Of a DNA stretch of 64,000 nucleotides, positions 5,638 to 56,551 are shown one piece after another. The number at the start of each line of letters is the position of its first letter. Position 1 is the first letter of the stretch. The notes below the pieces were generated by a model. The model was not told where the DNA came from. It worked only from the letters and a program-made list of their open reading frames with translations, and did no database searches. The position numbers and the translations under genes were made by a program. Origin of the DNA: Naegleria gruberi (Eukaryota); NCBI GenBank assembly GCA_000004985.1, contig GG738903.1; one strand, given 5' to 3'.

Positions 5638-7887
5638 ATGGGCAACTTCTTTCCTTCAGTAACGCTTGAACCACAACAGAAAACTGAACTGGAATCAAAG
5701 TTGAAAAGAAAAATAGATTCTGTTGGTGCCTATCCTGTAAGGAGTCCCAAGAAAAAGGTTCATACAAAATCCGAAACAAAGAAATATCTTCCATCTGATA
5801 TACTTCAGTTTTTTGATATTCCCTTAGTCAACAGGGAAATAGCCTGCAGAAACCTGATGGACAGCTTAATAGAACAAAAAAGCTCAGCGAACCATGGACT
5901 GCTCCCTATTTTGAGCCAGCATTATGGTAGTGGGAAAACTCGTCTTTTAAGAGAGTTTCGACAAGCTTTAAAGGAGAGGAATGATCTTGAGCAATTTACC
6001 TGCTGCGAGTCTGAAACTTCATCAGCAGTAGCAAATAATATTATGCAAGCAGTTCTTGTGGATATGCCTTTAAATAGGGCAACATTAACAAATTCTATAG
6101 AAAAGGACTTGCAATTTCCATTGGGTGGTATAAGTCGTCTCTTTTTATTAAGGCTAAAGACATCTATAGAAGAACATGCAGCAATTTCAAAGGATCCTCT
6201 TGTTTCTAAAACGATGAATGTTTTACGGTATGTGGGTGCGTGTACATACAATCATGTTTCTGATCTTTCGTTTGAAGAAAAAGATATTATTACAGAATTG
6301 AGCTTTTGCTCTGATTGGATGCAGTTTCTTCAATTTTATTCTCGTAATAGACTTTACCCAATATTAATTCTAATAGACGAAGCTTCATATCTAGAGTACC
6401 ATTATAAGGATGGCCATGTGTCCTTTGTTTATCTTTGGGAAAAAGTAATCAAACCTACAATGGGATCATCTTCTCCAGGAATTTACTTTGTGGCTTGTGG
6501 GACATCTTCAACTCTTACGAAACTGGGAAGAGGATTGTTAAGAAACGAAACTAAACTGATTTCTCCCACAAACGCAATTCATATCACGTTAGAAATGTTA
6601 AAAGAAGAGCATATTATGGAGATTTTCGAGAAAGTAATTATATCTAAGGATGGAAAACTTAATGTTAGGCAATTTACTTCTATTTTTTGTAATATTGGAA
6701 ACAACTATGAATACTTTTGCAAAACAGTTTTTTGGTTTACTATGGGTGTTCCAAGATTGGTGCTGTACGTTCTCTCATCTTTAACGCGACATGTTAAAAG
6801 CAATGGACCATTAGATTTCAGCACGAGAGGAAAGATTGACGATGTTTTCAATAACTTTGAAGCAGGTCCAGAGCTTTCACTTGTGAAAACAGCAAAAGAA
6901 ATTTTCCCATTTAATGAATGTACTTCTACTAAGGACAATTTATCTCGCTTTCGTTCAATATTAACAATGGGAGTGTTGAGATTTCCAATTCCTGTAACAG
7001 AGGAGTTTTTGACTGAAATAGACCTTATCCATGATCTTAACGTAGCCGTGGAAACACCAACTATCAATATTGATGGAAAACCAACAGTCATGATCAAAAT
7101 GTTCATTCCAAGGTTTACATTGATTAAGGCAGCCAAGCAAGAAAGCTTGCAACATTTATCTGTCCTAGCTTCTCTTCCTTCCAATTACTACAGATACATA
7201 GACAAGGTCGACTTGCTTGAACAACTATTTCATGACACAATACTAACTAGAGTTTTGGTAACCATCAAATTTTCAAACGCAACGAGATGGCAAAACATCC
7301 ACTCAATATTCTCTCATTCACAGTTTCTAACAGACAAAAAGGTTGAAAGGGAACATGAATTGTTTATGACCACCTCTGTTTTAGGACCCCCAGCTCCTAA
7401 ATCCAAAAGCCCAGGTTTTTTGATATCTGTTCCTGAAGGCAATAGTATAATTGGTATTGCATGTAAAACCAACATGTTTTCATCAATATTTAGTCTAAAA
7501 ATGCTTCAAGACGAAATAGATAAGGCCAGTTTGCTTGAAAAAAACATTACACTTTTTGTTTTTGCCAGACAGTTGACTGCTGAACTAGTTCAGTCTTGTA
7601 AAGATTTAGGGTACTTAAAGTTGACAGAAGGGAAGTGGTCATTTGGTTCCGGCTTAAGTTGCTCAAAGCTAACCACACCTCCAACAGGTGTATGGGCCAA
7701 AGGACTCAAATTTATTGAGAAGACCATAAATGTTTACAAAAACATGGAGGTTATTATATTGGGGAATGATTTGTTCAGTTCATTCTTTACGAAAGAGGAT
7801 ATTGAGCTCCTGACAGAAATTTCTACTGCAAAAACTTATCCAAAAATGGGACTGGTAGAAAATTGGGTTCAATCATTAATTCAATAG
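5638..7887 (+). CDS. P-loop NTPase of the AAA+/STAND-like class (749 aa)
   Basis: Walker A motif QHYGSGKTRLL and Walker B motif ILILIDEASYL (hhhhDE) sit about 130 aa apart. A long alpha-rich C-terminal region follows with no recognisable repeats. Confidence 0.55.
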   Translation: MGNFFPSVTLEPQQKTELESKLKRKIDSVGAYPVRSPKKKVHTKSETKKYLPSDILQFFDIPLVNREIACRNLMDSLIEQKSSANHGLLPILSQHYGSGKTRLLREFRQALKERNDLEQFTCCESETSSAVANNIMQAVLVDMPLNRATLTNSIEKDLQFPLGGISRLFLLRLKTSIEEHAAISKDPLVSKTMNVLRYVGACTYNHVSDLSFEEKDIITELSFCSDWMQFLQFYSRNRLYPILILIDEASYLEYHYKDGHVSFVYLWEKVIKPTMGSSSPGIYFVACGTSSTLTKLGRGLLRNETKLISPTNAIHITLEMLKEEHIMEIFEKVIISKDGKLNVRQFTSIFCNIGNNYEYFCKTVFWFTMGVPRLVLYVLSSLTRHVKSNGPLDFSTRGKIDDVFNNFEAGPELSLVKTAKEIFPFNECTSTKDNLSRFRSILTMGVLRFPIPVTEEFLTEIDLIHDLNVAVETPTINIDGKPTVMIKMFIPRFTLIKAAKQESLQHLSVLASLPSNYYRYIDKVDLLEQLFHDTILTRVLVTIKFSNATRWQNIHSIFSHSQFLTDKKVEREHELFMTTSVLGPPAPKSKSPGFLISVPEGNSIIGIACKTNMFSSIFSLKMLQDEIDKASLLEKNITLFVFARQLTAELVQSCKDLGYLKLTEGKWSFGSGLSCSKLTTPPTGVWAKGLKFIEKTINVYKNMEVIILGNDLFSSFFTKEDIELLTEISTAKTYPKMGLVENWVQSLIQ

Positions 7888-7974
7888 TTTCACAAACCAC
7901 ATTCAAAACCAAATTGGATGGTGAGTTTCAACTTAAACGCACTCAGAGGTAAATTGGTCCTTTATTCAGTTAGA

Positions 7975-8899
7975 TTAAACATTGTAATCAAAATGAATTG
8001 GATGTTCATCTCCATCACTTGCAGCATTAATTACAGTAACACCATTTTGTATCTTTTCATATCCATAACCCATGTGGACATGACCAAAACAATTTACCTT
8101 TAAATCTTTCAATTCATTCATTCTGGTCATCAATGAAGGACTTCCATATTTCAAAATTCCATCTAAATGACCCTTTGGTGGTGTATGGGTCACTAGAATA
8201 TTTGTATCTGGATCAATAGTAGCAAAAATCTCTGCAAGCTTTTCCTCACTTCTATAAAAATAATCATTGTCGAATTGACACATGTATTCCTTCTTTTCTC
8301 CAGGTAAATCTGACATATTTGGAATATATGGAGTTCCATAAATTTTAACACCTTCAATTACAACACTGCTATTTTCAAGATAAATAGCATTAGAAAATAA
8401 TTCTTGAATCTTTTCCTTTCCAAGTTTAGAAATATCCACTTCATGATTACCTAATTACAATCATTTCAATAATGTTACAAAATATTTAAATCAAATTATT
8501 AAACAAATATTAAACAAACATACCACAAATAACAATCTTGTGTTTGTAAGGAAGTGTTCCAACCCATTGATTAAACTTTTCAATATCCTCCAATTTTCCC
8601 TCATCAGTCATATCACCACAATGAATAAATACATCACCCTCTGGTAATTGCAGCATATCATGTTTGTTGTGTGTATCACTTATAATTACAAATTTTAATA
8701 CCTTTTTTCCTTCAGAGGTAGGTTGTGGATGAACAATTTCCCATTCAATCTTTTTTGGAGCCTTGATCGCTTCTTGTTCTCTTCGGGATGAGAGTTTCTT
8801 CATCAATTCATCGGAATTAGATGTTGTAGATGATGAAAGTATTTTGGTTGTAGGAGCTTTAACAGCAATGAATGAAGTAGGTGGAGGTGGTGGAGGCAT
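7975..8899 (-). CDS. calcineurin-like metallophosphoesterase (two exons)
   Basis: Exon 1 is 8514..8899 and exon 2 is 7975..8450. The 63-nt intron 8451..8513 reads GTATGT…TAG on the minus strand. Splicing gives …KIVICG|NHEVDISKLG…, restoring the GNHE motif. The GDxHG and GD metal-binding motifs are upstream (VIISDTHNKH, IHCGDMTD). Confidence 0.7.
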
Positions 8900-9049
8900 T
8901 TTCTAAATATATTGTACTTATGTGATGAACATTTCATTGTTGTGTAGATGATCTAAAACGTCAGGTTCACTATGAACTCGTCAATTTTTTTAAGGTTTTT
9001 TGCTTTCTAAATAATACATTAGTTTCCTTCTTATTATTAAAAACTTAAA

Positions 9050-11413
9050 TTACAATATGATATCTATTGCACTCTCTTCTTTTAGTGAAATGTATTTTGG
9101 AATCAGTTTTTGCATTTCTTTTTCTAGTTCTGTTGTGAATTCTCTATTGTTTTTCAGCTCGTTTGAAGCAAATTTGAGAGTATATGGTATTTCCAATACC
9201 GCAGCAGTTACAATCTGCTTATCGTTTCTCAATTCCTCTGAGGCAAACTTGAGAGCATTTCCATTTTTAGAGATGGCTGCTAGTACTACTTGCCTATCAT
9301 TTTTCAGTTCCTCTGAGACATACTCGAGGTTTAATCCATTTTGTTGTACTTTTTGTAATGCTAATTCTCTATTATCTATTATTGATAGTGGTTGAGAGGA
9401 AAATACAAATGGTAAAATATAAGTAAATGGTTTTTTGAAAATGAGAATGTCGCCATCTTGTTTCAGTTCTTCAGATGCAAATCTAAAGGAAGAGCCATTG
9501 TTTTGAACTGCCTTCATAACAACCTCTTTGTCATTTCTCAATCTATCCGATGCATATTCAAGAACAATTCCATCCAGTTGAACTGCAGCTAGAACAATAT
9601 CCCTATCGTCCCTTAGTTCTTCTGTGCAGTGTTGTAAAGCTATTGGATTATTTTTAACTGCTTCCATAGCAATAATCTTGTTTCCTTTAAAAGATGTTCC
9701 ACAAAATTTAAGAGAATTTCCATTTTTTCTAATGGCCAAGCTAACTATTTCTAAATCATTCCTTAAAGCCTTACATGCATACCCAAGATTGTTACCGTCT
9801 CTTTTAATAGCTTCTGTAACAATATGACGATCTTTCTTCAATTCCTCAGATGCATAACTAAATGATCCACCATCGGTATTCATTGCCTCTATTATTACAT
9901 CCTTATCATTTCTCAAATTTTCACATGAATAATATAGAGCATTACCATAATTCTTCACTGCTTTCAAGACCATTTCCTTATCATTGTTGAAATGAGGAAT
10001 GCAACATAGTGCTTGTCCTTTTAATTCCATTATTTTTAACATGAATTCTCTATTATTCTTCAATTCTTCAGAGGTCAGTGATAGATTTTTAATTGCATCC
10101 TGAGGTTCACTCATCAATGCAACTTGATAAATGATTTGCTGATCATTCAAAAGTTTAGTAGAGGCATACATAATAGCGTTTGAATTTTGAGTAATAGCCT
10201 CCATTACAATTTCAAAATCATTTCTAAAAGAGAGTGCATATTCAAGAGACATGCCATTTTGTTTTACACACCCTAAAACAAGTTCTTTCTCTATCAAAAA
10301 GTCCTCTGGTGATACAAATTGAAGATTGAGGCCATTCTTTTCACATACATACGAAACAACACTCTTACTATTTTTAAATGGGTGTTTTAAATTTTGAAAA
10401 CAATCAACCAAGCTAGTAACTTTGCCATTCAAATTATCAAACATCACCTGAAATATATTTTCAATAGAATATCTATTGTCTTCGTGAATACATGTCATTC
10501 CTTTACATAAGTCCTTAATTACAATCCATGAAGAAGGATCATTCTCAAATTCGCTAATAGTGGTAGTAGTATTAGTAATAATATTTTGGAATAATGTTTC
10601 GATATCATTCCACAATTCTTCTTGTTGATATTTTAATTGTAAGTGAAATCGATCTAGAAATAGAAATGATAGAATAGTAATACCCAGACTAAAAATATCA
10701 CATTTGCAGGAACATTTTCCATTAAGGATTTCTGGAGCAATAAACCCAATTGTACCAGCAAAACCTGTAGCAGAAGAGTAACAGGAGCTAGTACAATCAT
10801 CAACCAATTGCTCATTATTTTCCTCATTTAACAATAACATATCATCTAAATTATTTTCTGCCATTGTGGCACATCCTAAATCTCCCAACACTATCATTCC
10901 CTCCTCACTCATAAAAATATTTTCCGGTTTAACATCTCTGTGAATGATATGATTCAGTGATAGGGATTGCAAAGCTCCACAACACTGCACAATGATTTGT
11001 AATACCATTAAAATTGAAACTCTTTCCAAGTTTTTTCTCACATCACGCAAATTATTTCCTCTAAATTTAGATATAATAACATATTCTCGTAAGGTTATAG
11101 AGGCTTCATCATCATCATTATAATTATTAAAAGTTTTCATCGATAAAACATTGGCATGATTTGTGTGTTTATACTTTTGCAAATACTCGCTTCTGGTTTC
11201 TCCAGTCTCAAGTAAACCTGAATCATCATGAATAATTTTAAAAACCATCAATGATTGATCGCTCATCTTTCTACACTTGTAAACCCATGTTGTTGGATTT
11301 CGGTAAATTTCTGCTATGGGAAAATAGTATTCACCTTGAAATTCAAAACTTGTTCCATTGTTGTTATTATGGAAAAGAAGCGAAGAAATGGTGGACTGAA
11401 GAGATTTGGTCAT
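9050..11413 (-). CDS. Ser/Thr protein kinase with about 15 C-terminal DUF4116 repeats
   Basis: 787-aa ORF. The kinase catalytic loop HRDVKPENIF, DLG (a DFG variant) and the activation segment GFIAPE are present. The C-terminal half is tandem ~25-aa repeats of the form (A/V)(V/I)xxNGxALxYASEELRNDKEIV, typical of DUF4116. Confidence 0.7.
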   Translation of the reverse strand: MTKSLQSTISSLLFHNNNNGTSFEFQGEYYFPIAEIYRNPTTWVYKCRKMSDQSLMVFKIIHDDSGLLETGETRSEYLQKYKHTNHANVLSMKTFNNYNDDDEASITLREYVIISKFRGNNLRDVRKNLERVSILMVLQIIVQCCGALQSLSLNHIIHRDVKPENIFMSEEGMIVLGDLGCATMAENNLDDMLLLNEENNEQLVDDCTSSCYSSATGFAGTIGFIAPEILNGKCSCKCDIFSLGITILSFLFLDRFHLQLKYQQEELWNDIETLFQNIITNTTTTISEFENDPSSWIVIKDLCKGMTCIHEDNRYSIENIFQVMFDNLNGKVTSLVDCFQNLKHPFKNSKSVVSYVCEKNGLNLQFVSPEDFLIEKELVLGCVKQNGMSLEYALSFRNDFEIVMEAITQNSNAIMYASTKLLNDQQIIYQVALMSEPQDAIKNLSLTSEELKNNREFMLKIMELKGQALCCIPHFNNDKEMVLKAVKNYGNALYYSCENLRNDKDVIIEAMNTDGGSFSYASEELKKDRHIVTEAIKRDGNNLGYACKALRNDLEIVSLAIRKNGNSLKFCGTSFKGNKIIAMEAVKNNPIALQHCTEELRDDRDIVLAAVQLDGIVLEYASDRLRNDKEVVMKAVQNNGSSFRFASEELKQDGDILIFKKPFTYILPFVFSSQPLSIIDNRELALQKVQQNGLNLEYVSEELKNDRQVVLAAISKNGNALKFASEELRNDKQIVTAAVLEIPYTLKFASNELKNNREFTTELEKEMQKLIPKYISLKEESAIDIIL

Positions 11414-11757
11414 TTTTTATCATCTTTAATTCTTATTGTAATGCAAGTGGTTCATCACGCCTCTGTTGATTCTTGGTGTAATTTCACATCTATTAACTCC
11501 AAGAATTTCAGCACATCAGCTCAACATCTATATAATAGTAATTTGGAATTTATTCCTTCATCATGATTTGGAAATAAAATTTCGATTGTCAGACCTCCAA
11601 TACGAAGAACGTAAACCAATCCAAGGCTTGTATTGCCATGTGTGGTAAGGAAAGGTTAAGGTCGTCAGTGATATTATTGAAAAACTACATGAGATTAACA
11701 TGTCAAGGTGAAATGAGATATTAGAGAGGCAACCAAACAAAAAAAAATACCGAAAGA

Positions 11758-13311
11758 ATGTTCAAGTTTAAACGAAACAATTCTTCGACTAAACTTGAGG
11801 ATATCCACTTGATTTATGAGTTTCCTTTGGAGGCTATATTCGATGTTCCCGAAGCCAAGGAAGAATTTCGTGCCTATCTAAAGAGGGAACACAATGAAGA
11901 ACCTCTTTTGTTTTATGAGGAAGTTGAAGATTTTAAACGACTTAAATTTGAAGAGAATAAGACAAAGAAGGCATTATTCATACTAAAGACTTATGTCATG
12001 CCGAACAGCAGTCATGAAATTAATATATCATCACAATATAGACAGAATATCGTGTTAGGATTTGAAAAATCAGGTCAACTGACTTCAGAAAAGAATATGT
12101 TGGTTGATGAAACTATTTTTGATGATTCACAAAGTGCTATTTTCTATAATTTGAAGAATGACACTTATCCTAGGTTTACCAAATCTGTTCAATTTAACAA
12201 TTTCCTTAAACAAAAGGATGAAGCATTTATTACATCAATTTCTGTACTGAAAAACACAAAATATATGGAGTATATTCCAAAATTTGATGGATTGGTTTGT
12301 GATAGAGATATTCAATTCTTTTCATTCATGGCTTTTAATGATGATGAGGAAGTTTGGGATGAAATTAAAGTTGGAGCAAGTGGTAGAAGAGCTTGTTATC
12401 AATCCAAAAAGGAATTCAACATTGATGAAAATGAGGAAAAAGCAAATGGTAAACTGTTAAAGCAAGTTTTCATTTTACCATGTTCCAAGGAACAAGCTTT
12501 TAATATGTTTTCTCATACTCAAGTTAGACAGGATATTCTAGATGCAGAGAGTATTAATCAGTTAGATTACATTCCAATATCAAAAACAAATAAGTATGCA
12601 CAATCTATTCTCAAGATTGTTATTCAAATGACAGGTTTAACTTGGGTAATGAAACCTAGACAAGCAGTTGTGGCTGGTACTGTAGTTAAAGATACAAAGA
12701 GAAACTGTATTGCTAATATTATGAAGTCAACCAACTCTGTCCTTCTTCCTGAAAAGAAGTCACATGTTAAAGCGAGAGTACTTTCTTCCAGCTTCTTTGT
12801 AGATTGCTACACCACAACACATCTAAATAAGCTCAAAGATCCACCCCACACAAACCATAGTATGAGTTCTGGAGATTTGAGAAAATCAACCTCATCAGCA
12901 TCATCTACTTCCTCCTTTTCAAGAAAAAGCTCAGTAGCATTTGATGACAGCTTGTCTGATATGAGTACTGAATCATTTGGACCAATTGAAAATGCTTGCA
13001 AAGTAATTTGTGTTTCCTACATTGACTTACAATCAATGCAATCTGATTTTATAAGGAAAAAGTTTTTTAATGCGAAAAACAAGGCAGCCCATACAGTATT
13101 TATGAATTCTGTAAAGGAATTTGGAGCTTTAAATTTCCCTAAACCTAAATTCAGTGAGGGACTATATGACACCTTAGATGCTTTTACTTCACACTATACT
13201 ACTGGTGATAATGACACTGTTATGACCTGGGATTTGGAAGAAGAAGAAGAGGGTAATATGTATCCGTGTTATCCAGCCAACGCTGGATTGAAAGGATTTT
13301 GTCAGATGTGA
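11758..13311 (+). CDS. RGS (regulator of G-protein signalling) domain protein
   Basis: 517-aa ORF. The N-terminal region (FRAYLKREHNEEPLLFYEEVEDFKRL … KKALFILKTYVMPNSSHEINISSQYRQNI) matches the RGS-box consensus. The last 60 bp of the CDS is duplicated in inverted orientation about 580 bp downstream. Confidence 0.6.
   Translation: MFKFKRNNSSTKLEDIHLIYEFPLEAIFDVPEAKEEFRAYLKREHNEEPLLFYEEVEDFKRLKFEENKTKKALFILKTYVMPNSSHEINISSQYRQNIVLGFEKSGQLTSEKNMLVDETIFDDSQSAIFYNLKNDTYPRFTKSVQFNNFLKQKDEAFITSISVLKNTKYMEYIPKFDGLVCDRDIQFFSFMAFNDDEEVWDEIKVGASGRRACYQSKKEFNIDENEEKANGKLLKQVFILPCSKEQAFNMFSHTQVRQDILDAESINQLDYIPISKTNKYAQSILKIVIQMTGLTWVMKPRQAVVAGTVVKDTKRNCIANIMKSTNSVLLPEKKSHVKARVLSSSFFVDCYTTTHLNKLKDPPHTNHSMSSGDLRKSTSSASSTSSFSRKSSVAFDDSLSDMSTESFGPIENACKVICVSYIDLQSMQSDFIRKKFFNAKNKAAHTVFMNSVKEFGALNFPKPKFSEGLYDTLDAFTSHYTTGDNDTVMTWDLEEEEEGNMYPCYPANAGLKGFCQM
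13249..13308. repeat. left arm of a perfect 60-bp inverted repeat (copy of the RGS gene's 3' coding end)
   Basis: The sequence gagggtaatatgtatccgtgttatccagccaacgctggattgaaaggattttgtcagatg is read directly. Its exact reverse complement lies at 13888..13947. Confidence 0.8.
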
Positions 13312-13887
13312 GTGGATTCCGTCGACTGCCAGTGGATTTTTATCTGGATAAATCAGATAAATCAAGGAAAAATCTGGATTTAATGGATAAAATTAAAGGG
13401 GGGCGAGTAACCAATCATTACCATCATTAAACTGATTCAAAACTTTCTTATAGCCAATGGAATTCATGGCCAAGATCTTGCAATTTACCATCTTGTGCAT
13501 TTCTTATAATTTCTGCAAAGAAAATAACACTGCACATTCACTCAAACTCTTCTATTAAATCTTGCTTTTTTTCCAACTATTTCCAATTTGAATTATAATC
13601 ATATGATTTATTGTTATTTTTGTTTGATCTCTCTTAATACAATCACTAGATGAATAAATTTGTGATTAACTTCCGATTCTACCAATTCTACCAATTCCAA
13701 TATGTTGACTTGATTCACGTGATGAATTGGATCTGTTGCTTGTAGATATGAGTCTTTCTGTGTTAGTTTGCCAACTGAAATAATAGCAGCTCTTCTGTGT
13801 ACTAAATTGTATTTTGCAGCCAATAAAATCGGAAATATCCATCCATTATCCATTTTATCCTGGCTTTGTCTTGATGGGATCCACTTA

Positions 13888-35661: not shown

Positions 35662-35711
35662 NNNNNNNNNNNNNNNNNNNNNNNNNNNNNNNNNNNNNNN
35701 NNNNNNNNNNN
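35662..35711. other. assembly gap (50 N)
   Basis: Run of N read directly. Confidence 0.95.
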
Positions 35712-44805: not shown

Positions 44806-47800
44806 ATGAAAAAGGTATTTGGTAGTTACCATTGCCAACTTTTAGTTTTGTTGGCTTTTTGCATGTGTTTTGTGCAATCAACAAATATTTATCAATCATC
44901 TTCATCAAATTCCTCTATTTATTATAATAATTTGGCCACCTATAGTGTTCAAACAATTATTGGATATCCGAGGCCATTGCAAAATTACTTTCCGAGTGGT
45001 TTGCCAGCCACTTACTATTGGGGATTATCAATACAGGCAATTGTATTGCCACGAAATGGTGATGGAAGTTTACATGGTGATGAAATTATTTACATCTCCT
45101 CCATGGAAATAATTTACAAATATTCAAAACAAGATGGACTATTGAGAAAGTTATCATTTAGTGGTGAGAAATGGTATGATATTTCATCATTCTTTGTTTT
45201 GAAAACTCAGGAAGGAGGAACTTTAATATATGTTACTTCCAATAGACTCGAGTCGACTGTTTATTCGGCAAGTGAAGAAAGTGGAACTGTTCAGAGGATT
45301 GCAGGTTCTTTGAGTTCATCGGGATATAATGGTACGTAATGGAGTAAATTGATTTTGTAATATGAGAATGTACATTGTAAAGGTGATGGAAAACCAGCTA
45401 TCGATTCCTTACTGAGCCAACCTCAATCTGTATTTGTTAAGGATGGTGAGGTTTATATTTGTGATACAAATAATCATCTGATTCGACGTATTGATAGGAA
45501 TGGAATTTTATGGAATGTTTTTCGTAAGTGTGTGTTAATTTTCAATTTATTTAAAACATTTAATATTTCTAAAAACAGAAAAAGGGTTTGTAAGGGAACC
45601 ACAACAACTAATTTTTGCAGGGAATGATATGGTAGTAAACACAGGCAATTTGATTCTTAGAATATTTCCCAATCAAACATATGAAACTCATTATGCTTTC
45701 TATTCATTTTCTAAAGCTGCTGTTTTTGAAAATGATATCTACTATATCAATTATGGTAGTATCCAGAAGGCAATTGGTTCATATTCCTCTGAGACTGTGT
45801 TAGTGTTTGAAAAATCTGCCAAAATTCCTAGAATTCTAACAATCAACAATGAGGGAAATTATTTAGTTTCAGTTGGAAACGTTTTAAAAGAATTTCAGAG
45901 ATATAATGATAGTATTGGAAGAGTTGTGATTGGAACATCGGATTCTAATCTTCAATACTATACATTACCAGCAAATATCTCAGATATTCAAAACGTTGAA
46001 TCGATGACACTTTGTGAAGAGGACAATTCCATTATTTTCACTCAACATTCGTCTTCTGTTATAAGACATTATGTTCCAAACAAACCATTCATGGATGTTG
46101 TTGGAATGAATGTGGATAAGATATCTTTTATTTCAAAGTATGGGAATGATATGTATGCAATTGTGAATAATAATATTTACTTGAGGAATAACCAAGGAAA
46201 TTTCACTCAATTATCAGGATTGCTATCACCAGTCAATGTACCTGATAATATTAAGGCAACATTATCAACCTTAAACAATCCTAGAGGAATATTTCTTAAA
46301 AACCAAAAACTGTACATTTCTGATTCGAATAATCATAGAATACGAGTAATTGATATACAAACTGGACTTATTTCTACATTGGCAGGAAATGGAATTGCAA
46401 ATTTTAGTGGTGATGGGCTAGCCGCAACAGAAGCATCCCTAAACTCTCCATCTGGTGTATTTGTTTCAGAGTTTGGAAAAATTTATATATCTGACTCTGG
46501 TAATCATAGAATTAGAGCTATTCTTCCAAATGGCATTATTTCAACTGTTGGAGGTAATGGTATTCCTGGATTTTCGGGTGATAATGGTTTGGCTACTAAT
46601 GCAAGTCTTAACAACCCCTATGGCATAGTTGAAACATATAGTGGTGACTTGATTATTTCTGATTCTGATAACAATAGAATTAGACTAATCGATAGATATG
46701 GAATTATCACAACTCTAGCTGGAACAGGAGAGAAAGGATTCCAGGATGGATTCTTTCTCGACGCGTTATTTAACAATCCATCTCAATTATTTTACTTCCA
46801 TTCCCGCTTGTACATTTCAGATACATATGGCCAAAGGATTCGTGAAGCAAATCTTGAATCAAAAACCGTAAAAACAATTATTGGAACAGGAGAGAAGGGA
46901 TACAATGGAGATAATTTCCCAACCACCACTCAGCTCAATAACCCTCTATCAATGTTTATTACATATAATAATATTATTTACATTGCAGATACTGACAACA
47001 AGAAAATAAGAATGTTGAATACGGGTATTGTATCAACACTAGAGCTTACTTTTGAATCTCCAAAGGGAATAACTGGAGATGATAAATTTCTCTATATCAC
47101 CGATGGGAATTTAGTTAAGAAAATTGATATTGCCAATGGTTATAGAGTTGAAATTATTGGAGGTGGAATTGGTGATGGTTGGTACTTGAAGTATGCAATT
47201 CTTAATGCTGAAAACCTTGCTTTTGATGATGAGAAGAATGTTTATTTTACAGATTCTTCTCATAATGTTGTAAGAAAGTTCAATACAATGAATGGAATAG
47301 TGAGTACAGTAGCAGGAAGGACTAGTACATTGGGATATGAAGGTAAGTTTCAATTACTACTAATATCTCATTAAAAAAACAACAGGTGATGGTGGATTGG
47401 CTGTTGGGGCTCTCTTAAATTTTCCAAAAGGTATTGCAGTTTCCAAGTCGAGTTTAGGATTCTTTCTCTATATTTGTGACTTTGAAAATCAACGCATTCG
47501 AAGAGTTAATTTGGAAACTGGAATAATAACAACAGTAGTAGGTACAGGTCAAAAAGGATATAGTGGTGATGGAGGGTTAGCAATTTATGCCAAGATTACT
47601 AATCCAACACATATAGCTGTCAACAAGGAAGGAGAAGTTTTCTTCTCAGATTACAATTATGTAAGGAAAATAACAAGAAATGGATATGTTTATAGAATAT
47701 CTGGTGCTCAAGGAGGAACTGATTTTAATGGAGATTCATATCCTGCTTTGGAAACAGGTTTCAGTATTACAAGTAAGTATTTTATCTCCGTTTTGAAATT

Positions 47801-49429
47801 CATATTTCAATTCAGAAACTTTAATGGTAGATAATACTGGAAGTATTGTTGTTTTCGATTATAACAATCAAATTATTAGAAAGTTAATTCCTCACTGTGA
47901 AACTGGCTATAGTTTGGAACCTGAAACTAATTCTACATGCATTCCAAATTGTTTTGGAATTTATGGAAAAACAATTAATGCTTGTTCTTCACATGGATTT
48001 TGTAAAAGTTTAGATCAATGTGAATGTTATTCTGGTTATTCTGGATCAAATTGCTCAGAATCAATATGCTTTGGTAAGACGGGATCTGGAGCATGTAATG
48101 GCAAAGGAATTTGTGTTTCACCAAATGTTTGTCAGTGCTTGGATGATTATTCAGGTATTGATTGTTCGATACCTAAAACAGTTTTAATTTTAGTTGGAAG
48201 TTTGATTGCTTGTGGCTTGGTTATTGTAATAGTTTTTGTAATTTCTGTTTCAATGGTCTTTGTCTATATTCAAAATCAAAGAAAGAAGAGAGCAATCCTC
48301 ATGACTGACAAATTATTAGACAAGAGATTGCTTATGGATGATTTTGCATCCTATAATTCTTCAATGGGGATCAGTAATAGTGAACTCAATGAAGCAGATT
48401 TTGTTATTCCACTGGAACAGTTGGATATGGATCATCCAATCAAGAGGATTGGTGAAGGTTCTTTTGGAAGAGTATTTTCTACAAAATGGGGAAACCAATT
48501 AGTTGCCGTTAAGGTTGTGGACATGAATGATTTTGACATGTCGGAGGAAACTTTCAAACAAGAATTTCAAATCTTGTCACGTTTAAGACATCCAAAAATT
48601 GTCTCCTTCTATGGCATTTCATTTTCTCCAACGAAGAGATATATTGTTATGGAGCTTTGTGAACACAGCTTGGAACATGTCATTAGTCAATTGCAGAATC
48701 AAGTTATTCAAATGGATTTACAGGAAAAGATTGATATTCTAATAGATATTATTGAGGGAGTGAATTATTTACATACCTTGACTCCAAAATGCCTTCATAG
48801 AGATTTGAAACCCCTCAATATTCTTGTGAGCTTTCAGAAAGAATACAAATTATGCGATTTTGGTGTTGGAAAGATTTTAAACTCAAAAACTGTCAATTCT
48901 TTGACCAACAATGGTAAGTTTCAATGAAATTGTTCTCAATATTTAATTATATTCACAAAACACAATAGTGGGGACGTGTTACTATATGGCTCCAGAAACT
49001 ACAGGATGTGAAAGTTTACAAGAATCTGAATCAGTTTGTGCTACTTCAATAGATATTTACAGTCTGGCCATTATTTTCTACCAATTATTATTTGAAGTGA
49101 AAGAGCCCTATATTTCATGTCATGATAGAGTTTTGAAAAAGTTGAAAATGAATGAACCACTACAATTGACTAACATGTACCATTTGCATAGATTAGTGAT
49201 TGAGAAAAACCTCAGACCTATCATTCCATTTTCTTCTGCAAAGGAATGTCAACAATGGTGTCAGGAATATCTATCACCAACAGATGCCAAATATCATAGC
49301 ATTTTCTATGAGATTTGTCAATTAACTAAACTATGTTGGGATAAACAACCAAAAACGAGACCAAGTGCAAAAACTATTTTAGAACGACTCCATGGTTGGA
49401 AGAAAGAAATTGAAACAAAGTATTACTAA
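44806..49429 (+). CDS. receptor Ser/Thr/Tyr-type kinase: signal peptide–NHL repeats–EGF-like module–TM–active kinase (six exons)
   Basis: CDS = join(44806..45331,45383..45523,45579..47342,47386..47772,47816..48913,48969..49429), with introns of 51, 55, 43, 43 and 55 nt, all GTA(A/C)GT…AG and phase 1. It re-joins track ORFs 44695, 45629, 47397, 47824 and 48968. NHL repeats look like ISDSNNHRIRVID. EGF-like cysteines CxCxxGYSGSNC are present. The TM is LILVGSLIACGLVIVIVFVI. The kinase has IGEGSFGRV, VAVK, HRDLKPLNILV, DFG and GTCYYMAPE, the last spanning the final intron. The acceptor of intron 4 has an alternative in-frame site 15 nt downstream. Confidence 0.7.
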
Positions 49430-49493: not shown

Positions 49494-50727
49494 TTATTCT
49501 GAACTTGAGGATGAGGCAGTAGATACTTGTATAACTTTGCACTTTTCAAAAACTCTTTTGAATGCCAAATAGTTGGATTGATCTTTTCCATCTTCCAAAA
49601 TAGCAAACACAATACTCTTAAAACTATTTGGAAATTCCTGAGTTATTACTTCATAAAACAATTTAGCCATATGATTTTCTGAAATAAATTGAATTCAATA
49701 AAACAAATAATTAAATAATTAACTTACCTGGATTCTTGTATGCTCCACATCCAAAAGCACTCAACACAATACTCAAATGTCCATTATTAAGAGCTGCATA
49801 AAGAATTCCTCTAATTTTCTGTCTTGTTCCTTCCTCAAACTTGCTCGTCATCATGAGTTGATTTGTCTTTTTATCTAAAAAGGTATTTGGTCTAATGAAA
49901 GCACTTGCTGCAATGATTGAAATTTCCAATGGTTGATCCAAATATTCGAAAGCACTTCCTTCTCCGTGTCTTAATAATTGAACATTGGGTGAGTAAATGA
50001 TATCATAATCAGAAAGTGGATAGAACTGATCTGGGCCAATAACTGAAACTATTTGTTGATCAGGGGAAGGTTTCTTACAATTTGGATTAAACTTTTTGAA
50101 AATATCATTTGGATCTAATAGAGAATAAATGTAATTTGTTGATCTGAAGAGAGCTTCTTCTTGACTTTTCTGTCCAGTTTCAAAACCTCCACCAGCTCTC
50201 TTCTTACTTGCCATATTTAGCACAACTGGATTCATTCCATTTTTGTGTAATTTGAAAATAGTTTCAACACAATCTTCCTTAATTACTTCAATGGTAGTAG
50301 CAAATTGTTGATTAGTAGAGGTGGAATTGAAGACAATCTTCTCAATTTCATTAAATTGATATAACTTATTCTTTGCCAATTGTTGCTCATAAATTTCTTT
50401 ATCCAAGTTTCTAATAGAAACTTTCTCCTTCTTTGAATTATAATAAAACCCTCTCTGTAATGACAACATTGTATCCTTCATGACATAAATCCTCATTCCC
50501 TTCAATGCATCTGGATTATTCTCATTCAAATATCGTTGATGCCACTTTCTAAAAACAACCGAATTAAAAACTGGTGATTGTAACAATAATTTATCCGCAT
50601 TTTCTTGAATTTGATTATAGCTCTGATCAAGAGGATCCGATAAATCAATAGATTGTTGCTGATTTCCCTTTGGATTATTTGCTGATTTATCATCCGATGA
50701 TTTTCCTGGTTTCTTGTTTTTTACCAT
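49494..50727 (-). CDS. bacterial-type poly(ADP-ribose) glycohydrolase-like macrodomain protein (DUF2263/TIGR02452 family; two exons)
   Basis: CDS = complement(join(49494..49678,49728..50727)), with a 49-nt intron (GTAAGTT…TTTCAG). The signature VLNMASKKRAGGGFETGQKSQEEALFRS (GGG-x7-QEE) and the C-terminal SAFGCGAYKNP|ENHMAKLFYEV are characteristic of microbial-type PARG. The track's upstream extension to 50937 runs through poly-T promoter-like sequence, so I start at MVKNKKPGKSS. Confidence 0.65.
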
Positions 50728-50991
50728 TTTTTTTTTATTTTTTTTTAAAGTTTTAATTTTTTCAAATTGGAAATTGAAATTTAGCCAAGTTTTAATTTTC
50801 AAATTCAAATTTAACTTCAAGGCAACTTCCTGGAGTAAAATCCAAATTTCACAGGAAAGAATAAACCCTATTATATTCATATTGCCATTTCGAATAATAT
50901 TAACTCCTAACATTTTACAATAAATTAATATGACCAATAATACGATAGAATCAAGTAGATCAATAATCTATTTAAACGAAAGTGAAATAAT

Positions 50992-53900
50992 TTATTCTCT
51001 CCTATATTTAATCAAATATTCAGGATAGCATTGATATCTATCATAGACAATAAATTCTCTATATGAAGAATTAGAACTATTCGATTGACCAATCACTGAA
51101 TCATACACTCTTCTGTTGGATCCATTAATCTCTGGTGGTCTTCTCTGATTTGTCATTCCCATAGGTGTATAATAGATCTGTCTTCCCAACACAACCCTAC
51201 ACAAAAACATGTAATACTCGCCATTAGTATCTGGAGTAGAATATTGATCTGATTTGGAACAATATTCAGCAAAGTATACTCCAGCTCCAAAGAGACCAGC
51301 TAAACTGGCAACTCTTTCATCAAATCCGTGCTCTGAAATGGTATTCACATATTCATGTTTGGTACCATGCCACAAATACTTTTCATTCATTGATGTGTTC
51401 AATCCAGTTGACTTGAGCCATTCAAAAGCAGGAGATTTCAATGTTGTGAAATTTTCAGTTTGGACTTGAATGGGATTGAGTGGATCTTGATAAGAAGAAA
51501 TGTGATTTTCTCGTATCTTGTAGGCACTGTAAAGGGAAGGATTTTCAATTCTGTAAACACTTGATATGACTAGTTTCGAATATTTCATTTTGTAGAGTTG
51601 ATCTCTTCCTGATCCAAGTGTTTTCGAGTTAGAAGAAACATTCATTATTTCTTGTATAATATCTTTCAATTGACTTGTTACATCAACAGTGTTGTATCTG
51701 TCTGCAAATCTATTAAAACTATTTCGTTTCCAATAACGAGGCAACCCAATATTCAATTGTTTCGACTTGTTTTCAATCATTTCCTTCTCCATCTTTTCAA
51801 GTTTCTTTTCCTTTCTCTTCAACCTTTCCACTTGTTTTGATAATTCCTCTCTTTCCTTTGAACTTTCTCTTGATAATTGTTTCTTCTTCTGTTCTAGTTC
51901 TTTAATTTTCTGCTCGAGCTCAGCATGTTCATTTGTCATGTTAAGTTTCAAATTATTCAATTGTTGCTCATATTCTTTCAATTGTTTTGACTGGTTTTCA
52001 ATGAATTTAACTTGATCTTGAAGTTTCCTTTCGTTCAATGGTTCAAATAAATCATTTTCTTCAATTTCATCAAAACTTGGATCTGAAAGCAGGTCTATTT
52101 TAAATCCTAATCCTTCAAGTTGAATGAATTTAGTTTTGAGCTCTCTCAATTGTTCGTAAATATTCCTCCATTCTTCTTGATATTTAGGAACCTGACTCTC
52201 CTTCTTTCTTAGTTTGTTTTCAAACTTTAAGATTTCCATTTCTGGCATATTTCCCTTCTTGGCGATTTCTAATGCACTTTTGATTCCTTCAATATCTAAG
52301 GTATTCATTTTACTTCTCAATGTTGTCTTTCTAATAAGTAAATTGGTCAATTGAGAGCTCAACTGAGGATAATTATTCATAACTTCAACTTGGCTTTGCA
52401 ACTCTTCAAACTTTTCAATGATAAATGGTATTCTATCTTGAATGAACATTTCACATGTAGAATATTGAATATAATAATCATGAAATAAATGAAAAATTGT
52501 AATCTGAATTTCTTTTGGAATTAAATTTTTAAAATTTGCAGAAATGTCATCCAAGTACTTTCTTTCCTGTTCTAAATTTTCCATAGCATTACCCAAGCTG
52601 GATGATAATTCAGTATTACTAATTCCAACAGAGGAAATTAAAGAAAAAGTAATGTTTTGTAATTGTTTTGTAACGAGCTCCAATCCTATTTTTGAATTTC
52701 GTTCAAAATTCGTTCCTGATACTATTTTACCCAAAGCATTTCCAATATAGTTTGGAATTTCTTCCGTATTTTTTACATAAACAGCTTCATTATTTTGTGA
52801 ATAAATTTCGTTTAAATAGTTTCCAATAAATTCTTTCAATTTTTCTAATTTTTCTTCCAATAATTGCATGTAACTATTGAGATTTATCAAGTAACTATCC
52901 AAATTAATTGCTTCTACCACCGATCCAATATAATATAGTAAACTATTAACATGCTCAATGTGTTCTCTAATTCCAATATCCAAAACTAAATTTGGTAAAT
53001 TTTCATTAATAAAATTGTGACATGTTGATATTTGTCCCTTCATAATAAAATATCCCTCTTGAATAGATTGATGAATGAATAGCTCTTTAGATTGAAAAAT
53101 TACTTTTTCAATCGTTTCTGATAATAGAGTTCTTTGTTTGGAAACTCTTTCATTTAAGGAACATAATTCCATAAATGATTGATTAGTAATTTCATGTTGT
53201 TGTTTTCTTTCTTTTCTTATTTTTTCATTTTCTAAACTTAAACTCTCGATCTTTCTTTCTTCTTTAATTATTCTTCTTTCTTCAGGAAGAATAACACCAT
53301 AATGAATAGCTTTCGAATAGTTTCTATTATTGGAAGTAGAAACTCTATTGCTCTTTTGAGTATTTTGAATTTCAATCTGATTATTCTTCATATCTTCCAT
53401 AATTTTACCAATAGGCTCTCCATTTACTTTCAAACGATAATCAATTTCTAAATCTTCCACTTTTAGTAATAACTTTACAATTTCCAGCTGATTTTTCTGG
53501 CAAGCAGAATGGAGGGGTGTCTAATTGACTTGATTTAATAAGAATTTACAATGAAAACTTACAAAAACAAGGTTCGGATCAGTTCCTGGCTACCATAATC
53601 CTCCAATTAATCCACAATTTTTTTTATCAAAACTTACCATCTATTAAACTATTTAATAATTTACAACATCAATATTAAACACTTACAAACTATTACAAAA
53701 TACTCAACAACCACAACACACCAACAAATCAACTTACGCCAATATTAACATTAATCCCATCACACTCCAATAACAATTTTACAATTTCAACATGTCCATT
53801 CCGACACGCAACAGATAACAAAGTTCTGTTATTTAAAATATCGTCCGAATATTTGTTAACTTGTTGAGGATTGAAGAAAGTTTTAAAATCAGAAACGTTG

Positions 53901-54013
53901 CCAATTTCTGCTGCTTTGAACGCTTTTTTGAAATCGTATCTGGACATTTTTTTCTTGTGGGAATTGTGATGGGAATTGTGAAAATGATGATTGACATTTC
54001 GAATAACTGACAA
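50992..54013 (-). CDS. poly(ADP-ribose) polymerase (PARP catalytic domain) with N-terminal ankyrin repeat(s) and a long coiled-coil
   Basis: Main exon 50992..53520. The C-terminal PARP fold has LWHGTKHEYVNTISEHGF (H-G-T), GAGVYFAEYCSKSDQY and YDSVIG…EFIVYDRYQCYPEYLIKY, resembling tankyrase-type catalytic domains. The reading frame continues upstream of the first Met into an ankyrin repeat (TPLHSACQKNQLEIVKLLLKVEDLEIDYRL). The upstream exon 53738..54013 (…LLSVACRNGHVEIVKLLLECDGINVNIG, then GTAAGT) joins in frame (phase 0) through a composite 216-nt intron, 53522..53737. That exact junction is inference. Confidence 0.6.
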
Positions 54014-54371: not shown

Positions 54372-56551
54372 GTGTTGATGCCCATTAAACACTTCTTTAC
54401 ATTAAAGAGATTAGAAAGCATCTTAAAGATCCTTATTAAAAAAAATATGAAGACCAAAGTTGCACCTAATATCAAATACGAAACTGAAAGTGTTTCTAGT
54501 TCTTCGGCTGATGGTATCGATGAATTGAAAACTACCTTTTTCTCTTCCATTAAATTTCTGCTCATAATTTTAATTTCCTTATTAATTTTGATTAGTGTCG
54601 TTTTGCTGTCAGTTATTTGGATCAGCAGTTTTAGTTCAGCAGTTGGTGAGATGAGCAGCAAAGTGAGAAGACAAGAATTTGAAAAGATTGTTTCATTCAC
54701 TCAAAGGATTTTAAATGATGTCATGTTAGTGACAGAATCTGTCAAATCTCAATTATATTCTGATTTTGATTTTGACACCATGATTGAAAAGCACATGTTT
54801 AAAGCCATGAGAGTAGCTCAGAAATATCTACCAAGTGTTACCCAGGGAGTCAATATAGGTGATCCATTTGGAGCCTTTTATGGACTAGCTCACTTTGGGG
54901 ATGAAATTACTTTTTATAATATCACTCCAGGAAAAGATCAGTACTATTACAATTGTCGAAACTTTTACACTAGTGACTATTGTAATAGATCTTCTGAACC
55001 TGATATTGTCTATCCTCCATTCACTTCCAATTTTGTGGCAGAATCTGCTTCAGTCAACCCTGGCAATCCGGTGTTTACAGTTTCGTATGTGGATCCAACC
55101 TTACCGAATTTTGTCTTCCTTACAGCAGTCTCATCTTTCAAACAGGGAAATATCAAGTCAGGTGCCAGTTTTTCATACTTTTTTGGTTATGACATGACCG
55201 TGGCTTCAATTTCTGAATTTTTAGTTGAAATTACAAAAGAAGTGAGTGGCTCATCTTCGTTTATTATAGAAAAGAAGACAGATTTCATTATTGCAAGTGA
55301 CCATCCAGAGGTTGCGGTTGCCACAGTCGATTCTCAAGGAAACGTTCAAAGAAAAACAGCAAACGATTTTGGAGGTGATGTTACCAAAATTGGTAATATT
55401 GTTTATGGAGCTTTTAAATCATTTGATGAATTAACTTGCAATACTGAAAGTGTACTATCAGATGTTAGTAATGTCATTTCGGTTTATAGACTTTGTACTG
55501 AGGAGGGATTGGAATGGGTTCTTGTGTTTAGTGTTCCTCACTGGAATTATATTGGATCGATGGTTATTGCGATAATTTGTGCCATTTTGGGATCAATTCT
55601 GATCGTTTCTATTGGTATGGTAANNNNNNNNNNNNNNNNNNNNNNNNNNNNNNNNNNNNNNNNNNNNNNNNNNNNNNNNNNNNNNNNNNNNNNNNNNNNN
55701 NNNNNNNNNNNNNNNAAATGAATCCAACGATACAGTTACACTCTTGACTGACATTTTTGAAATCATTGGACAAGCAGCCAAAACAAGTTGTGGACAAATT
55801 GGAAAGTTTGAAAATGAAATGGTGACTATTCATTTCAATGCCACAAATGATCAAAATCAACATGAAATGAAAGGTCTACAATTATGTCATGTCCTCCTAT
55901 CCAAGTTAAATGGATACAAGGAAAGAAAATTAAGGAAACATCAATTATTGGAAAAGTATAAGGAATCCTCTCTCATAGAACGATTCAACTTTAGAATAGT
56001 TGCCAATAGTCAATATAATTTGTGTGGAAATTTGGGAACGAAACAAGTGATGACATTTTCAATTCTTGGAAGTACACCTTTCAATTTACAATCAATGATT
56101 GAAACTGCTAAGGAATTGGATGTTCCAATATTAATTTCAGATGATTTGAATGAAAAGGTTGATAATTTATTCCAAACTAGATATGTGGATACGAAAGAAA
56201 TGGTCATTGATCAGTATTACACCTCCCCTGTATCTGATTCGAATTTGTTTAGTATGAGAAGAGTTTATGAATTGGGAGAATCTTCTCAAATTGCGCAAGA
56301 TGAATGGATGTAAGTTATCATGGTTCTTTACTAATTAATTTTCAAATAATTTATTCGAAAGGTATGAGTTGGAAGCTAAGGAAAAGAAGAATCGTTGGAA
56401 CAAGTACAATAATGCATGTGCAATGGTCTTTGAGAATAAATATGGTGACGCTGCAAACATGTTGCGGGATTACATTACAGAACTTTCGAATGCAAAACAA
56501 GATTTGGTAGCTATAAGGTTACTTGAAAATTGTGAAAGACTATGCCAGTAA
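54372..56551 (+). CDS. receptor-type class III nucleotidyl cyclase-like protein (TM–extracellular domain–TM–divergent cyclase homology domain), interrupted by an assembly gap
   Basis: ORF 54372..55623 has two TM helices flanking an extracellular domain of about 320 aa and runs into the 92-N gap. After the gap the same strand reads …TVTLLTDIFEIIGQAAK… (compare cyclase F.DIVGFT) and …RIVANSQYNLCGNLGTKQVMTFSILGSTPFNLQSMIETAKELDVPILISDDL (compare RIGIHSGPVVAGVIG…GDTVNTASRMES…I.VS). The second metal-binding Asp motif (ETIGDAY) is not conserved. A 52-nt intron 56310..56361 joins the C-terminal exon 56362..56551. Frame continuity across the gap is unknown. Confidence 0.5.
55624..55715. other. assembly gap (92 N) inside the cyclase-like gene
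   Basis: Run of N read directly. Confidence 0.95.

Follow-up and report, generated by a model that had tools for sequence, protein, structure and literature searches.

The window analysed here, a 64,000-nt stretch of Naegleria gruberi contig GG738903.1, carries a PARP gene and, 264 nt downstream, a PARG gene, both on the minus strand (Table 1); the genes surrounding them in the window are unrelated housekeeping or signalling genes. Public annotation lists the two as consecutive entries, XP_002671735.1 (PARP) and XP_002671734.1 (PARG), on a common 304-kb scaffold, and genes and families alike have been catalogued before for N. gruberi. The gene identities, catalytic motifs, orientation and intron are as a preliminary description of this DNA had them. 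Three particulars are amended: the gap, put there at 265 bp, measures 264 nt from PARP stop to PARG ATG; the accession given for the PARP, PF01129, gives way to PF00644 for the catalytic domain (the Pfam check assigns PF00644 to the PARP and PF10021 to the PARG); and the upper boundary of 54013 is merely the start of a TTG open reading frame, the likely start codon being at 53947.

Table 1. Features of the PARP and PARG genes, with positions in the window
Feature	Position	Strand	Remarks
Microbial-type PARG gene	49494..50727	-	ATG 50727; 394 aa = XP_002671734.1 (NAEGRDRAFT_73196)
PARG exon 1	50727-49728	-	
PARG catalytic signature GGGFETGQKSQEE, aa 179-191	50155..50193	-	GGG-x7-QEE (GGG-FETGQKS-QEE); agrees with GGG-X6-8-QEE
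PARG diphosphate-binding loop SAFGCGAYKNP (GCGxxxNP), aa 323-333	49729..49761	-	Ends exactly at exon 1 donor site
PARG intron	49727-49679	-	49 nt, GT..AG, frame preserved
PARG exon 2	49678-49497	-	Stop 49496-49494
PARP–PARG intergenic spacer	50728..50991		264 nt, 22% GC, PARP stop to PARG ATG
PARP gene	50992..53947	-	ATG 53947; product 921 aa
PARP exon 1	53947-53738	-	CDS
PARP micro-exon, putative/optional	53589-53563	-	27 nt
PARP exon 3	53520-50995	-	Stop 50994-50992
Two ankyrin repeats, aa 11-100	53458..53917	-	Pfam Ank_2 E=1.4e-14, Ank 2.4e-13; across exon 1–exon 3 junction
All-helical, partly coiled-coil middle region, aa 120-655	51793..53400	-	About 530 aa; AF2 secondary structure
ADP-ribosyltransferase (PARP) catalytic domain, aa 656-921	50995..51792	-	Pfam core 51001-51432
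H797 (WHGT)	51367-51369	-	Triad residue, aligned to tankyrase-1
Y828 (GVYFA)	51274-51276	-	Triad residue, aligned to tankyrase-1
E901 (YREFIVY)	51055-51057	-	Triad residue, aligned to tankyrase-1

The two genes and their products

The spliced PARG is, by exact look-up, letter-for-letter identical to its public entry, and the intron is confirmed because N. fowleri codes straight across its position. The 90% cluster that contains XP_002671734.1 is represented by a 35-aa fragment. The protein is a genuine PF10021 PARG and not an ordinary eukaryotic macrodomain protein: PF10021 is matched with E=2e-31 and 109.8 bits (cut-off 23.5), and TIGR02452 at full length (model positions 2-266 of 266) with E=4e-30 and 105.2 bits (cut-off 50). 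Like its bacterial-type relatives, it has one catalytic domain, of macrodomain type, and matches no further Pfam family, the canonical PARG domain included; it carries both the GGG-x7-QEE signature, of which G179, G180, G185, Q189, E190 and E191 are invariant among 51 homologues, and the GCGxxxNP diphosphate loop, of which A324, G326 and G328 are invariant. Among solved structures it matches the PARGs of Deinococcus radiodurans (5ZDB, 1e-16) and Thermomonospora curvata (3SIG, 8e-14). It differs from the bacterial-type enzymes in being a eukaryotic gene with an intron, in an N-terminal extension of ~80 aa that is conserved in heteroloboseans only, in an insertion at aa 205-235, and in the interior of the signature, which reads ETGQ(K/P)SQEE in heteroloboseans vs xxGAGAQEE. 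As a macrodomain hydrolase, the enzyme would use the QEE glutamates to cleave the ribose-ribose bonds of poly-ADP-ribose and, if it works like its Thermomonospora and Deinococcus counterparts, would act mainly at chain ends.

For the PARP, the outcome is a corrected gene model to which an ankyrin N-terminus has been added. The public model XP_002671735.1, to which the PARP open reading frame is 100% identical, is 802 aa long and begins at M120 (53400), and the ankyrin part is absent from it. The added N-terminus is supported because the second ankyrin repeat, TPLHSACQKNQLEIVKLLL, is in frame with the PARP, whose reading frame opens precisely at the AG acceptor 53520. The junction between exons 1 and 3 is ambiguous, with either one 217-nt intron or two introns flanking the micro-exon. 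The helical middle region has no Pfam family, and NCBIfam gives just weak coiled-coil-type matches (HlyD, SMC) for it. A read-through fusion of PARP and PARG was also considered and rejected: the PARP closes with the C-terminus usual for its family, followed by a stop codon, and in N. fowleri, N. lovaniensis and Willaertia the protein likewise starts with the conserved PARG N-terminus (MxKNK...).

The catalytic domain itself is well defined. PF00644 is matched over aa 776-919 with 82.2 bits vs a cut-off of 26.7 (E=4.6e-23), AF2 pLDDT exceeds 90 for most of its length, and the ART fold is recovered by Foldseek (TMt 0.76-0.84 to TNKS1/2 and PARP15, E about 3e-13); a phmmer search of the PDB matches PARP12, TNKS1 and PARP15 at about 1e-16. 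The H-Y-E triad is intact and the PEYLIKY tail is present; across 42 relatives neither H nor Y varies, and 39 of them have the E. Judged by its triad, the protein is probably an active NAD+-dependent ADP-ribosyltransferase, with ankyrin and helical parts that may serve in target binding or oligomerisation. What type of product would it make, polymer or mono-ADP-ribose? As a sequence feature, H-Y-E would not distinguish between them; PARP3 and PARP4 carry the triad yet make mono-ADP-ribose.

Adjacency of PARP and eraser genes

The preliminary description suggested that the pair could be a co-regulated or co-inherited module, and the gene order of related genomes speaks against co-inheritance. 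With loci inspected over 10 kb on each side, the PARG orthologues of N. fowleri, N. lovaniensis and Willaertia magna have no PARP in that range, and neither do the bacterial-type PARGs in Planoprotostelium and one further eukaryote. In other words, the adjacency is missing at all five of the other eukaryotic bacterial-type PARG loci examined, three heterolobosean orthologues included, and the neighbours of the PARG differ in every lineage. Seen from the PARP, it is missing at two of the three other loci of the same PARP subfamily. When six Naegleria/Willaertia loci were compared with the window by tblastx, the shared genes were the PARG or the PARP domain only. Since related amoebae do not keep the pair together, the evidence does not support a dedicated writer/eraser module; probably, two distinct and ordinary nuclear genes stand here in tandem by happenstance, in an adjacency specific to one lineage. 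The arrangement would have arisen in the N. gruberi lineage, and each gene is most likely under its own promoter.

The best surviving alternative is a co-regulated writer/eraser module, in which the PARP would modify targets or itself on a stress or conflict signal and the neighbouring PARG, expressed from the same chromatin domain, would reset or buffer the modification, as an analogue of bacterial transferase and hydrolase gene pairs. We regard the module interpretation as weakly supported and unlikely. The genes share a strand and lie 264 nt apart, but genes in this compact window are usually spaced by a few hundred nucleotides. Both H-Y-E and GGG-x7-QEE are intact; however, the triad is no proof of polymer synthesis, and a bacterial-type PARG requires a polymer substrate. 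The a priori chance of such an adjacency would be low: with the 15,700 genes that N. gruberi reportedly has, about 2 x n x 7 / 15,700, or roughly 0.01-0.02, same-strand PARP–PARG pairs are expected, where n, the number of PARP genes, is an assumed range of 10-20. The shuffled N-terminal domains of the PARP subfamily resemble those of fast-evolving signalling or conflict proteins. Known defence-system models are unmatched: all matches in a PADLOC scan against defence-system profiles were insignificant (E of at least 1e-3), including one to the helical region. There is a bacterial parallel in Herpetosiphon aurantiacus and Clostridioides difficile CD160, each with a PARP and a bacterial-type (DUF2263) PARG in one genome, where the PARG reverses the product of the PARP (PMC5966428). 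The parallel is one of gene content, and the bacterial PARPs are Clade-1-like WGR-PARPs, whereas the N. gruberi PARP combines a Clade 3/4-like ART with accessory parts of eukaryotic type. A functional writer/eraser relationship between the two genes is possible, although conservation does not indicate it.

A second adjacency keeps the module idea in play. The closest N. fowleri relative of the PARP, the kinase-PARP FDP41_002169 (P0379), lies ~100 bp downstream of, and on the same strand as, a gene for an ARH-family ADP-ribosylhydrolase; this linkage is independent of the N. gruberi PARG pair, and therefore two of the four inspected subfamily PARPs adjoin an eraser. Additionally, several metagenomic proteins (P0011, P0013, P0016, P0029) are fusions of a bacterial-type PARG domain with an ARH domain, so these erasers do get combined. 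Such findings would fit a lineage-specific, rapidly domain-shuffling Naegleria PARP subfamily that is repeatedly linked to non-homologous erasers, PARG in N. gruberi and ARH in N. fowleri, as eukaryotic two-gene writer/eraser cassettes comparable to bacterial transferase/antidote pairs, possibly in stress or conflict signalling; we consider this broader proposal more doubtful still. The second adjacency is nevertheless a pointer that can be tested genome-wide. Were the coupling real, the pair would be a rare eukaryotic operon-like ADP-ribosylation writer/eraser pair and an experimentally tractable handle on the role of bacterial-type PARGs in protists. Under the preferred reading of a chance tandem, the practical value is small, because genes and families are already catalogued and the linkage is confined to one lineage.

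Relatives of the PARP and ancestry of the PARG

The PARP belongs to a Naegleria subfamily to which this analysis serves as a pointer. The family was recovered when the catalytic domain served as query in an exhaustive search of representative sequences; the full-length protein drew mostly ankyrin-repeat proteins, with N. gruberi itself as the sole informative match, and the 802-aa model drew low-complexity/coiled-coil word matches, with the self-match alone scoring. The closest relatives are N. gruberi paralogues (71% and 64%), followed by N. fowleri proteins (57% and 55%). In a neighbour-joining (NJ) tree, which like that of the PARG is without bootstrap support, the family displays species-specific duplications, and the window PARP groups with two N. 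gruberi-only paralogues, one of ART only (P0229) and one of ricin lectin plus ART (P0231). By these comparisons, it appears to be a young, N. gruberi-specific paralogue. The relatives are mostly kinase-PARP fusions, and the N-termini of the other subfamily members are kinase, SNase-kinase or ricin-lectin. With the kinase-PARPs (N. fowleri FDP41_002169 and FDP41_002250, N. lovaniensis C9374_000562, N. gruberi NAEGRDRAFT_47537), the PARP shares an ART domain that is 45-57% identical and the pattern PxYW...RIENxxLW...YLWHGT...YREFIVYD...PEYLIKY. Weak similarity continues upstream, where blastp relates its helical region to the pre-kinase helical region of N. fowleri kinase-PARPs (27% over 231 aa with P0232, E=2e-7; E=8e-5 with P0379). 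The window PARP differs from them in having no kinase domain and ankyrin repeats at its start instead.

Is this PARP a tankyrase? The term 'tankyrase-like', used in the preliminary description, holds at the level of the catalytic fold and fails beyond it, where SAM domain, long ankyrin array and zinc motif are all missing. A Naegleria tankyrase orthologue, which would capture substrates through its ankyrin repeats and then poly-ADP-ribosylate them, is suggested by the combination of ankyrin repeats with a C-terminal ART, H-Y-E and a PEYLI(T/K)Y tail (tankyrase likewise has H-Y-E and a C-terminal PEYLIxY strand), and tankyrase 1 and 2 are the top Foldseek matches. PARP12 and PARP15 score equally well, however, and identity to the human tankyrase 1/2 and PARP12/PARP15 catalytic domains is ~24% over the domain; at the position of the catalytic E, PARP12 and PARP15 have I or L, whereas the N. 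gruberi PARP retains E. Only aa 11-100 match ankyrin models, which gives two repeats vs about 24 in tankyrase, with its five ARC clusters; the Pfam scan finds no SAM family, and about 530 aa of helices are present instead; the zinc-binding segment GCPTHKDRSCYICHRQ is largely gapped in the alignment, the aligned query residues being without a Cys/His pattern; and the closest relatives, the kinase-PARP fusions, lack ankyrin repeats. The published tankyrase-like ART is a different protein, from N. fowleri, with the zinc motif present (PMC9688111). Ankyrin+PARP combinations, which N. gruberi has, are regarded as independently evolved (Perina 2014, PMC4245714). Tankyrase identity is already refuted on its defining features, and we judge orthology extremely improbable.

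As for the PARG, the preliminary description held microbial-type PARGs to be rare in eukaryotes and often regarded as horizontally acquired. A published census (Perina et al. 2014, PMC4245714) opposes this: Plantae is the one eukaryotic supergroup for which it reports no bacterial-type PARG, and it counts seven in N. gruberi. The spliceosomal intron, a host-like GC3 and the branching order oppose it as well. In the NJ tree the PARG clusters with other eukaryotic bacterial-type PARGs, surrounded by named eukaryotic sequences and apart from a Bacteroidales-containing cluster; its branching, (Willaertia,(N. gruberi,(N. fowleri,N. lovaniensis))), matches the species tree of the heteroloboseans. 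To judge from this pattern, the gene is old and has been passed on vertically in Heterolobosea. Neither gene shows a sign of recent transfer in its base composition: GC/GC3 is 0.305/0.254 for the PARP and 0.322/0.254 for the PARG, within the spread of 18 other open reading frames of the window (mean GC3 0.279, sd 0.026). A recent acquisition from bacteria of the PARG, or of the whole pair as a foreign island, has the family name 'microbial-type' and the bacterial origin of the best solved relatives (5ZDB and 3SIG) to recommend it, but is effectively refuted, and in our view barely credible, given the intron, a GC3 that cannot be told apart from that of the genes around it, orthologues that track the species tree in three other heteroloboseans, nearest non-heterolobosean relatives that include eukaryotic sequences (EukProt) as well as metagenome proteins, and a PARP of the eukaryote-type ART class that has paralogues in Naegleria. 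The gene may still stem from an ancient transfer, whether into early eukaryotes or into heteroloboseans.

The PARP and PARG genes and their public models

What kind of pair do the window PARP and PARG form? The preliminary description saw in them a possible writer/eraser module; its observation of the pair and the identities of both genes are borne out, and its labels of a tankyrase-like PARP, a rare or horizontally acquired PARG and a co-inherited module are not. The best explanation is probably that these are two independent N. gruberi genes of known families, already annotated, with a lineage-specific adjacency. The PARP open reading frame is 100% identical to N. gruberi XP_002671735.1, a 'TCCD-inducible-PARP-like domain-containing protein', and the spliced PARG matches XP_002671734.1 exactly (NAEGRDRAFT_73196, 'predicted protein'); because these are consecutive accessions on one 304-kb scaffold, the two were already annotated as neighbours.

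The public PARP model has 802 aa, starts at M120 (53400) and is without the ankyrin part. The reading frame opens exactly at the AG acceptor at 53520, with the core of the second ankyrin repeat, TPLHSACQKNQLEIVKLLL. Exons 1 and 3 are joined either through a micro-exon, giving a 921-aa product, or across a single 217-nt intron, and the frame is kept in both cases. The two exons that XP_002671735.1 leaves out upstream encode, jointly with the first in-frame stretch of exon 3, the two ankyrin repeats, and the public model probably needs a 5' extension.

The PARG starts 264 nt past the PARP stop. Its proposed intron is confirmed independently by the identical public protein, and the N. fowleri PARG codes straight through that position. 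The clustered homology search missed the N. gruberi PARG because the representative of its 90% cluster is a 35-aa fragment (P0391); this is a pitfall by which an annotated gene can pass for an unannotated one.

Positions of the features discussed (window coordinates unless a locus is named)
Feature	Position	Strand	Description
PARP and PARG pair	49,494-53,947	minus	head-to-tail
PARP exon 1	ATG 53947; GTAAGT donor at 53737	minus	70 codons; one ankyrin repeat
PARP micro-exon	53589-53563	minus	27 nt; optional; between exons 1 and 3
PARP exon 3	53520 to stop 50994-50992	minus	open frame without interruption
5' part of PARP gene with the two ankyrin repeats	53400-53947	minus	omitted from XP_002671735.1
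PARG gene	50727-49494	minus	394 aa; one intron
PARG intron	49727-49679	minus	49 nt; GT..AG
Receptor gene	45629-49429	opposite to PARG	multi-exon; NHL-repeat, teneurin-type EGF, transmembrane, protein kinase
Membrane protein gene	54372-56313	plus	no Pfam match
Assembly gaps	35662-35711; 55624-55715		runs of N
ARH-family ADP-ribosylglycohydrolase gene and FDP41_002169	L004 (N. fowleri PARP locus, VFQX01000028.1, ~718-742 kb) 7950-13373		ARH 540 aa; PF03747
Coiled-coil protein genes	L005 (N. fowleri PARP locus) 5727-9886		three adjacent paralogues

Catalytic features and domain architecture

Pfam assigns Ank_2 to aa 11-100 of the window PARP (1.4e-14) and the PARP catalytic domain, PF00644, to aa 776-919 (4.6e-23), and the scan places no family between aa 100 and aa 776; PF01129, the accession initially suggested, is not the PARP catalytic-domain family. 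The H-Y-E triad that had been read from the sequence holds: H797 (YLWHGT), Y828 (GAGVYFA) and E901 (YREFIVYD) align with the tankyrase 1 triad, and across 42 relatives H and Y never vary, and 39 of them have E. For the exon-3 protein (842 aa), AlphaFold with a 42-sequence alignment gives a model of mean pLDDT 74.6, which has long helices throughout the middle region and a confidently folded C-terminal domain (pLDDT mostly >90), for which the best Foldseek matches are the catalytic domains of tankyrase 1/2 and PARP15 (E ~3e-13, TMt 0.76-0.84, ~24% identity). From triad and fold, we infer that the window PARP would be an active ADP-ribosyltransferase. The triad alone does not tell whether it makes polymer; PARP3 and PARP4 have H-Y-E, yet are mono-transferases.

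Is it a tankyrase? Three defining features were tested and all failed: the two ankyrin repeats are too few, there is no SAM domain but ~530 aa of helices in its place, and the zinc-binding segment of the tankyrase ART (ADP-ribosyltransferase domain) is an alignment gap. In a sequence search, PARP12, tankyrase 1 and PARP15 score equally against the window PARP (~1e-16). Ankyrin+PARP combinations in N. gruberi have been described as independent inventions (Perina et al. 2014, PMC4245714), and the published N. fowleri tankyrase-like ART, which has the zinc motif (PMC9688111), is a different protein.

The DUF2263/PARG assignment is confirmed by a PF10021 profile match (2e-31), TIGR02452 is matched over the full length (4e-30), and the closest relatives of solved structure are the PARGs 5ZDB from Deinococcus radiodurans (1e-16) and 3SIG from Thermomonospora curvata (8e-14). 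The GGG-x7-QEE signature is, as first described, complete (GGGFETGQKSQEE), the diphosphate loop SAFGCGAYKNP is complete as well, and the key columns of both are invariant in 51 homologues. These catalytic features suggest that the window PARG is an active poly-ADP-ribose glycohydrolase.

Separate histories of the two genes

Bacterial-type PARGs are found in all eukaryotic supergroups except Plantae, and N. gruberi has seven, three with a complete signature (Perina et al., PMC4245714); since its signature is complete and the public N. gruberi proteins include it, the window PARG is presumably one of the three. Its best homologues, one per species, are from N. fowleri (51%), N. lovaniensis (53%) and Willaertia magna (41%), followed by EukProt eukaryotes, glomeromycete fungi, rotifers and Planoprotostelium, mixed with metagenome proteins. 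A neighbour-joining (NJ) tree, built without bootstraps, has the topology (Willaertia,(N. gruberi,(N. fowleri,N. lovaniensis))) and places this heterolobosean clade inside a cluster with all named eukaryotic sequences, the named bacterial sequence falling in a separate one. GC3 is 0.254 versus 0.279 +/- 0.026 for the window ORFs. Tree, intron and GC3 together favour a gene passed down vertically within Heterolobosea over one acquired by recent transfer, and with the broad eukaryotic spread they leave a rare, horizontally acquired PARG unsupported. Among bacterial-type PARGs from metagenomes, some carry a fused ARH (PF03747) or WWE (PF02825) domain, and those of glomeromycete fungi have UBA domains (proteins P0011, P0013, P0016, P0029, P0039, P0012 and P0018).

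For the PARP, an exhaustive ART-domain search returned 7,140 relatives, of which 114 fall below 1e-30.

Closest relatives of the window PARP
Protein	Species	Identity to window ART	Domains
XP_002672366 (P0229)	N. gruberi	71%	ART only
NAEGRDRAFT_73830 (P0231)	N. gruberi	64%	ricin lectin + ART
FDP41_002169 (P0379)	N. fowleri	57%	kinase + ART
FDP41_002250 (P0232)	N. fowleri	55%	SNase + kinase + ART
C9374_000562 (P0234)	N. lovaniensis	47%	kinase + ART
NAEGRDRAFT_47537 (P0235)	N. gruberi	48%	kinase + ART

By neighbour joining, the window PARP clusters with its N. gruberi paralogues P0229 and P0231, and the kinase-PARPs of N. fowleri and N. lovaniensis form the sister group of these three. Its helical middle is weakly similar to N. 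fowleri pre-kinase regions (E=2e-7 and 8e-5). Identities, grouping and helical similarity all mark it as a young N. gruberi-specific copy, without a one-to-one orthologue, within a subfamily of Naegleria PARPs whose N-termini have been shuffled. Most members of the heterolobosean subfamily (P0379, P0232, P0234, P0235, P0239; loci L004-L006) are fusions of a protein kinase with a PARP, and some begin with an SNase or WD40 domain; a literature search of the accessible published PARP censuses found no mention of such fusions. At L005, beside the SNase-kinase-PARP gene, the coiled-coil paralogues have a common C-terminal motif, FNPYE...PxLMxPxxxxVFxRAxV.

Adjacency of writer and eraser

Linkage was assessed over 10 kb either side of the PARG orthologues, using called genes and tblastn. 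By both, no PARP lies within 10 kb of the orthologues in N. fowleri, N. lovaniensis or Willaertia; the neighbours are CTP synthase and one unnamed protein in the two Naegleria species, and an Elongator subunit and a glycosyl hydrolase in Willaertia, and the PARG is the sole match between these loci and the window. PARP is likewise absent at two more eukaryotic bacterial-type PARG loci, in Planoprotostelium and on one other eukaryotic contig. Because no PARP was found beside PARG at the other loci examined, the adjacency is specific to the N. gruberi lineage; unlinked orthologues are also what the preliminary description had itself set against a co-inherited module.

Could writer and eraser nevertheless be functionally coupled in N. 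gruberi? We consider this unlikely, although in a genome of ~15,700 genes with seven PARGs chance would place a PARP directly beside a PARG only ~0.01-0.02 times (an estimate that assumes 10-20 PARP genes), and although there is a second PARP/eraser adjacency: FDP41_002169, the N. fowleri protein nearest to the window PARP, lies on the same strand ~100 bp downstream of an ARH-family gene, an eraser non-homologous to PARG, with PF03747 confirmed on three exon pieces. At the other two subfamily PARP loci inspected there is no eraser neighbour, and an eraser adjoining two of four PARPs is suggestive, but the sample is small and post hoc. PADLOC returned no defence-system match. Two independent genes remain the preferred reading. 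The flanking genes are unrelated to the pair and encode an NHL/EGF receptor kinase (directly downstream of PARG), Nup192, an RBR-type protein, an LRR protein and an epimerase. The second of the two assembly gaps breaks the membrane protein gene.
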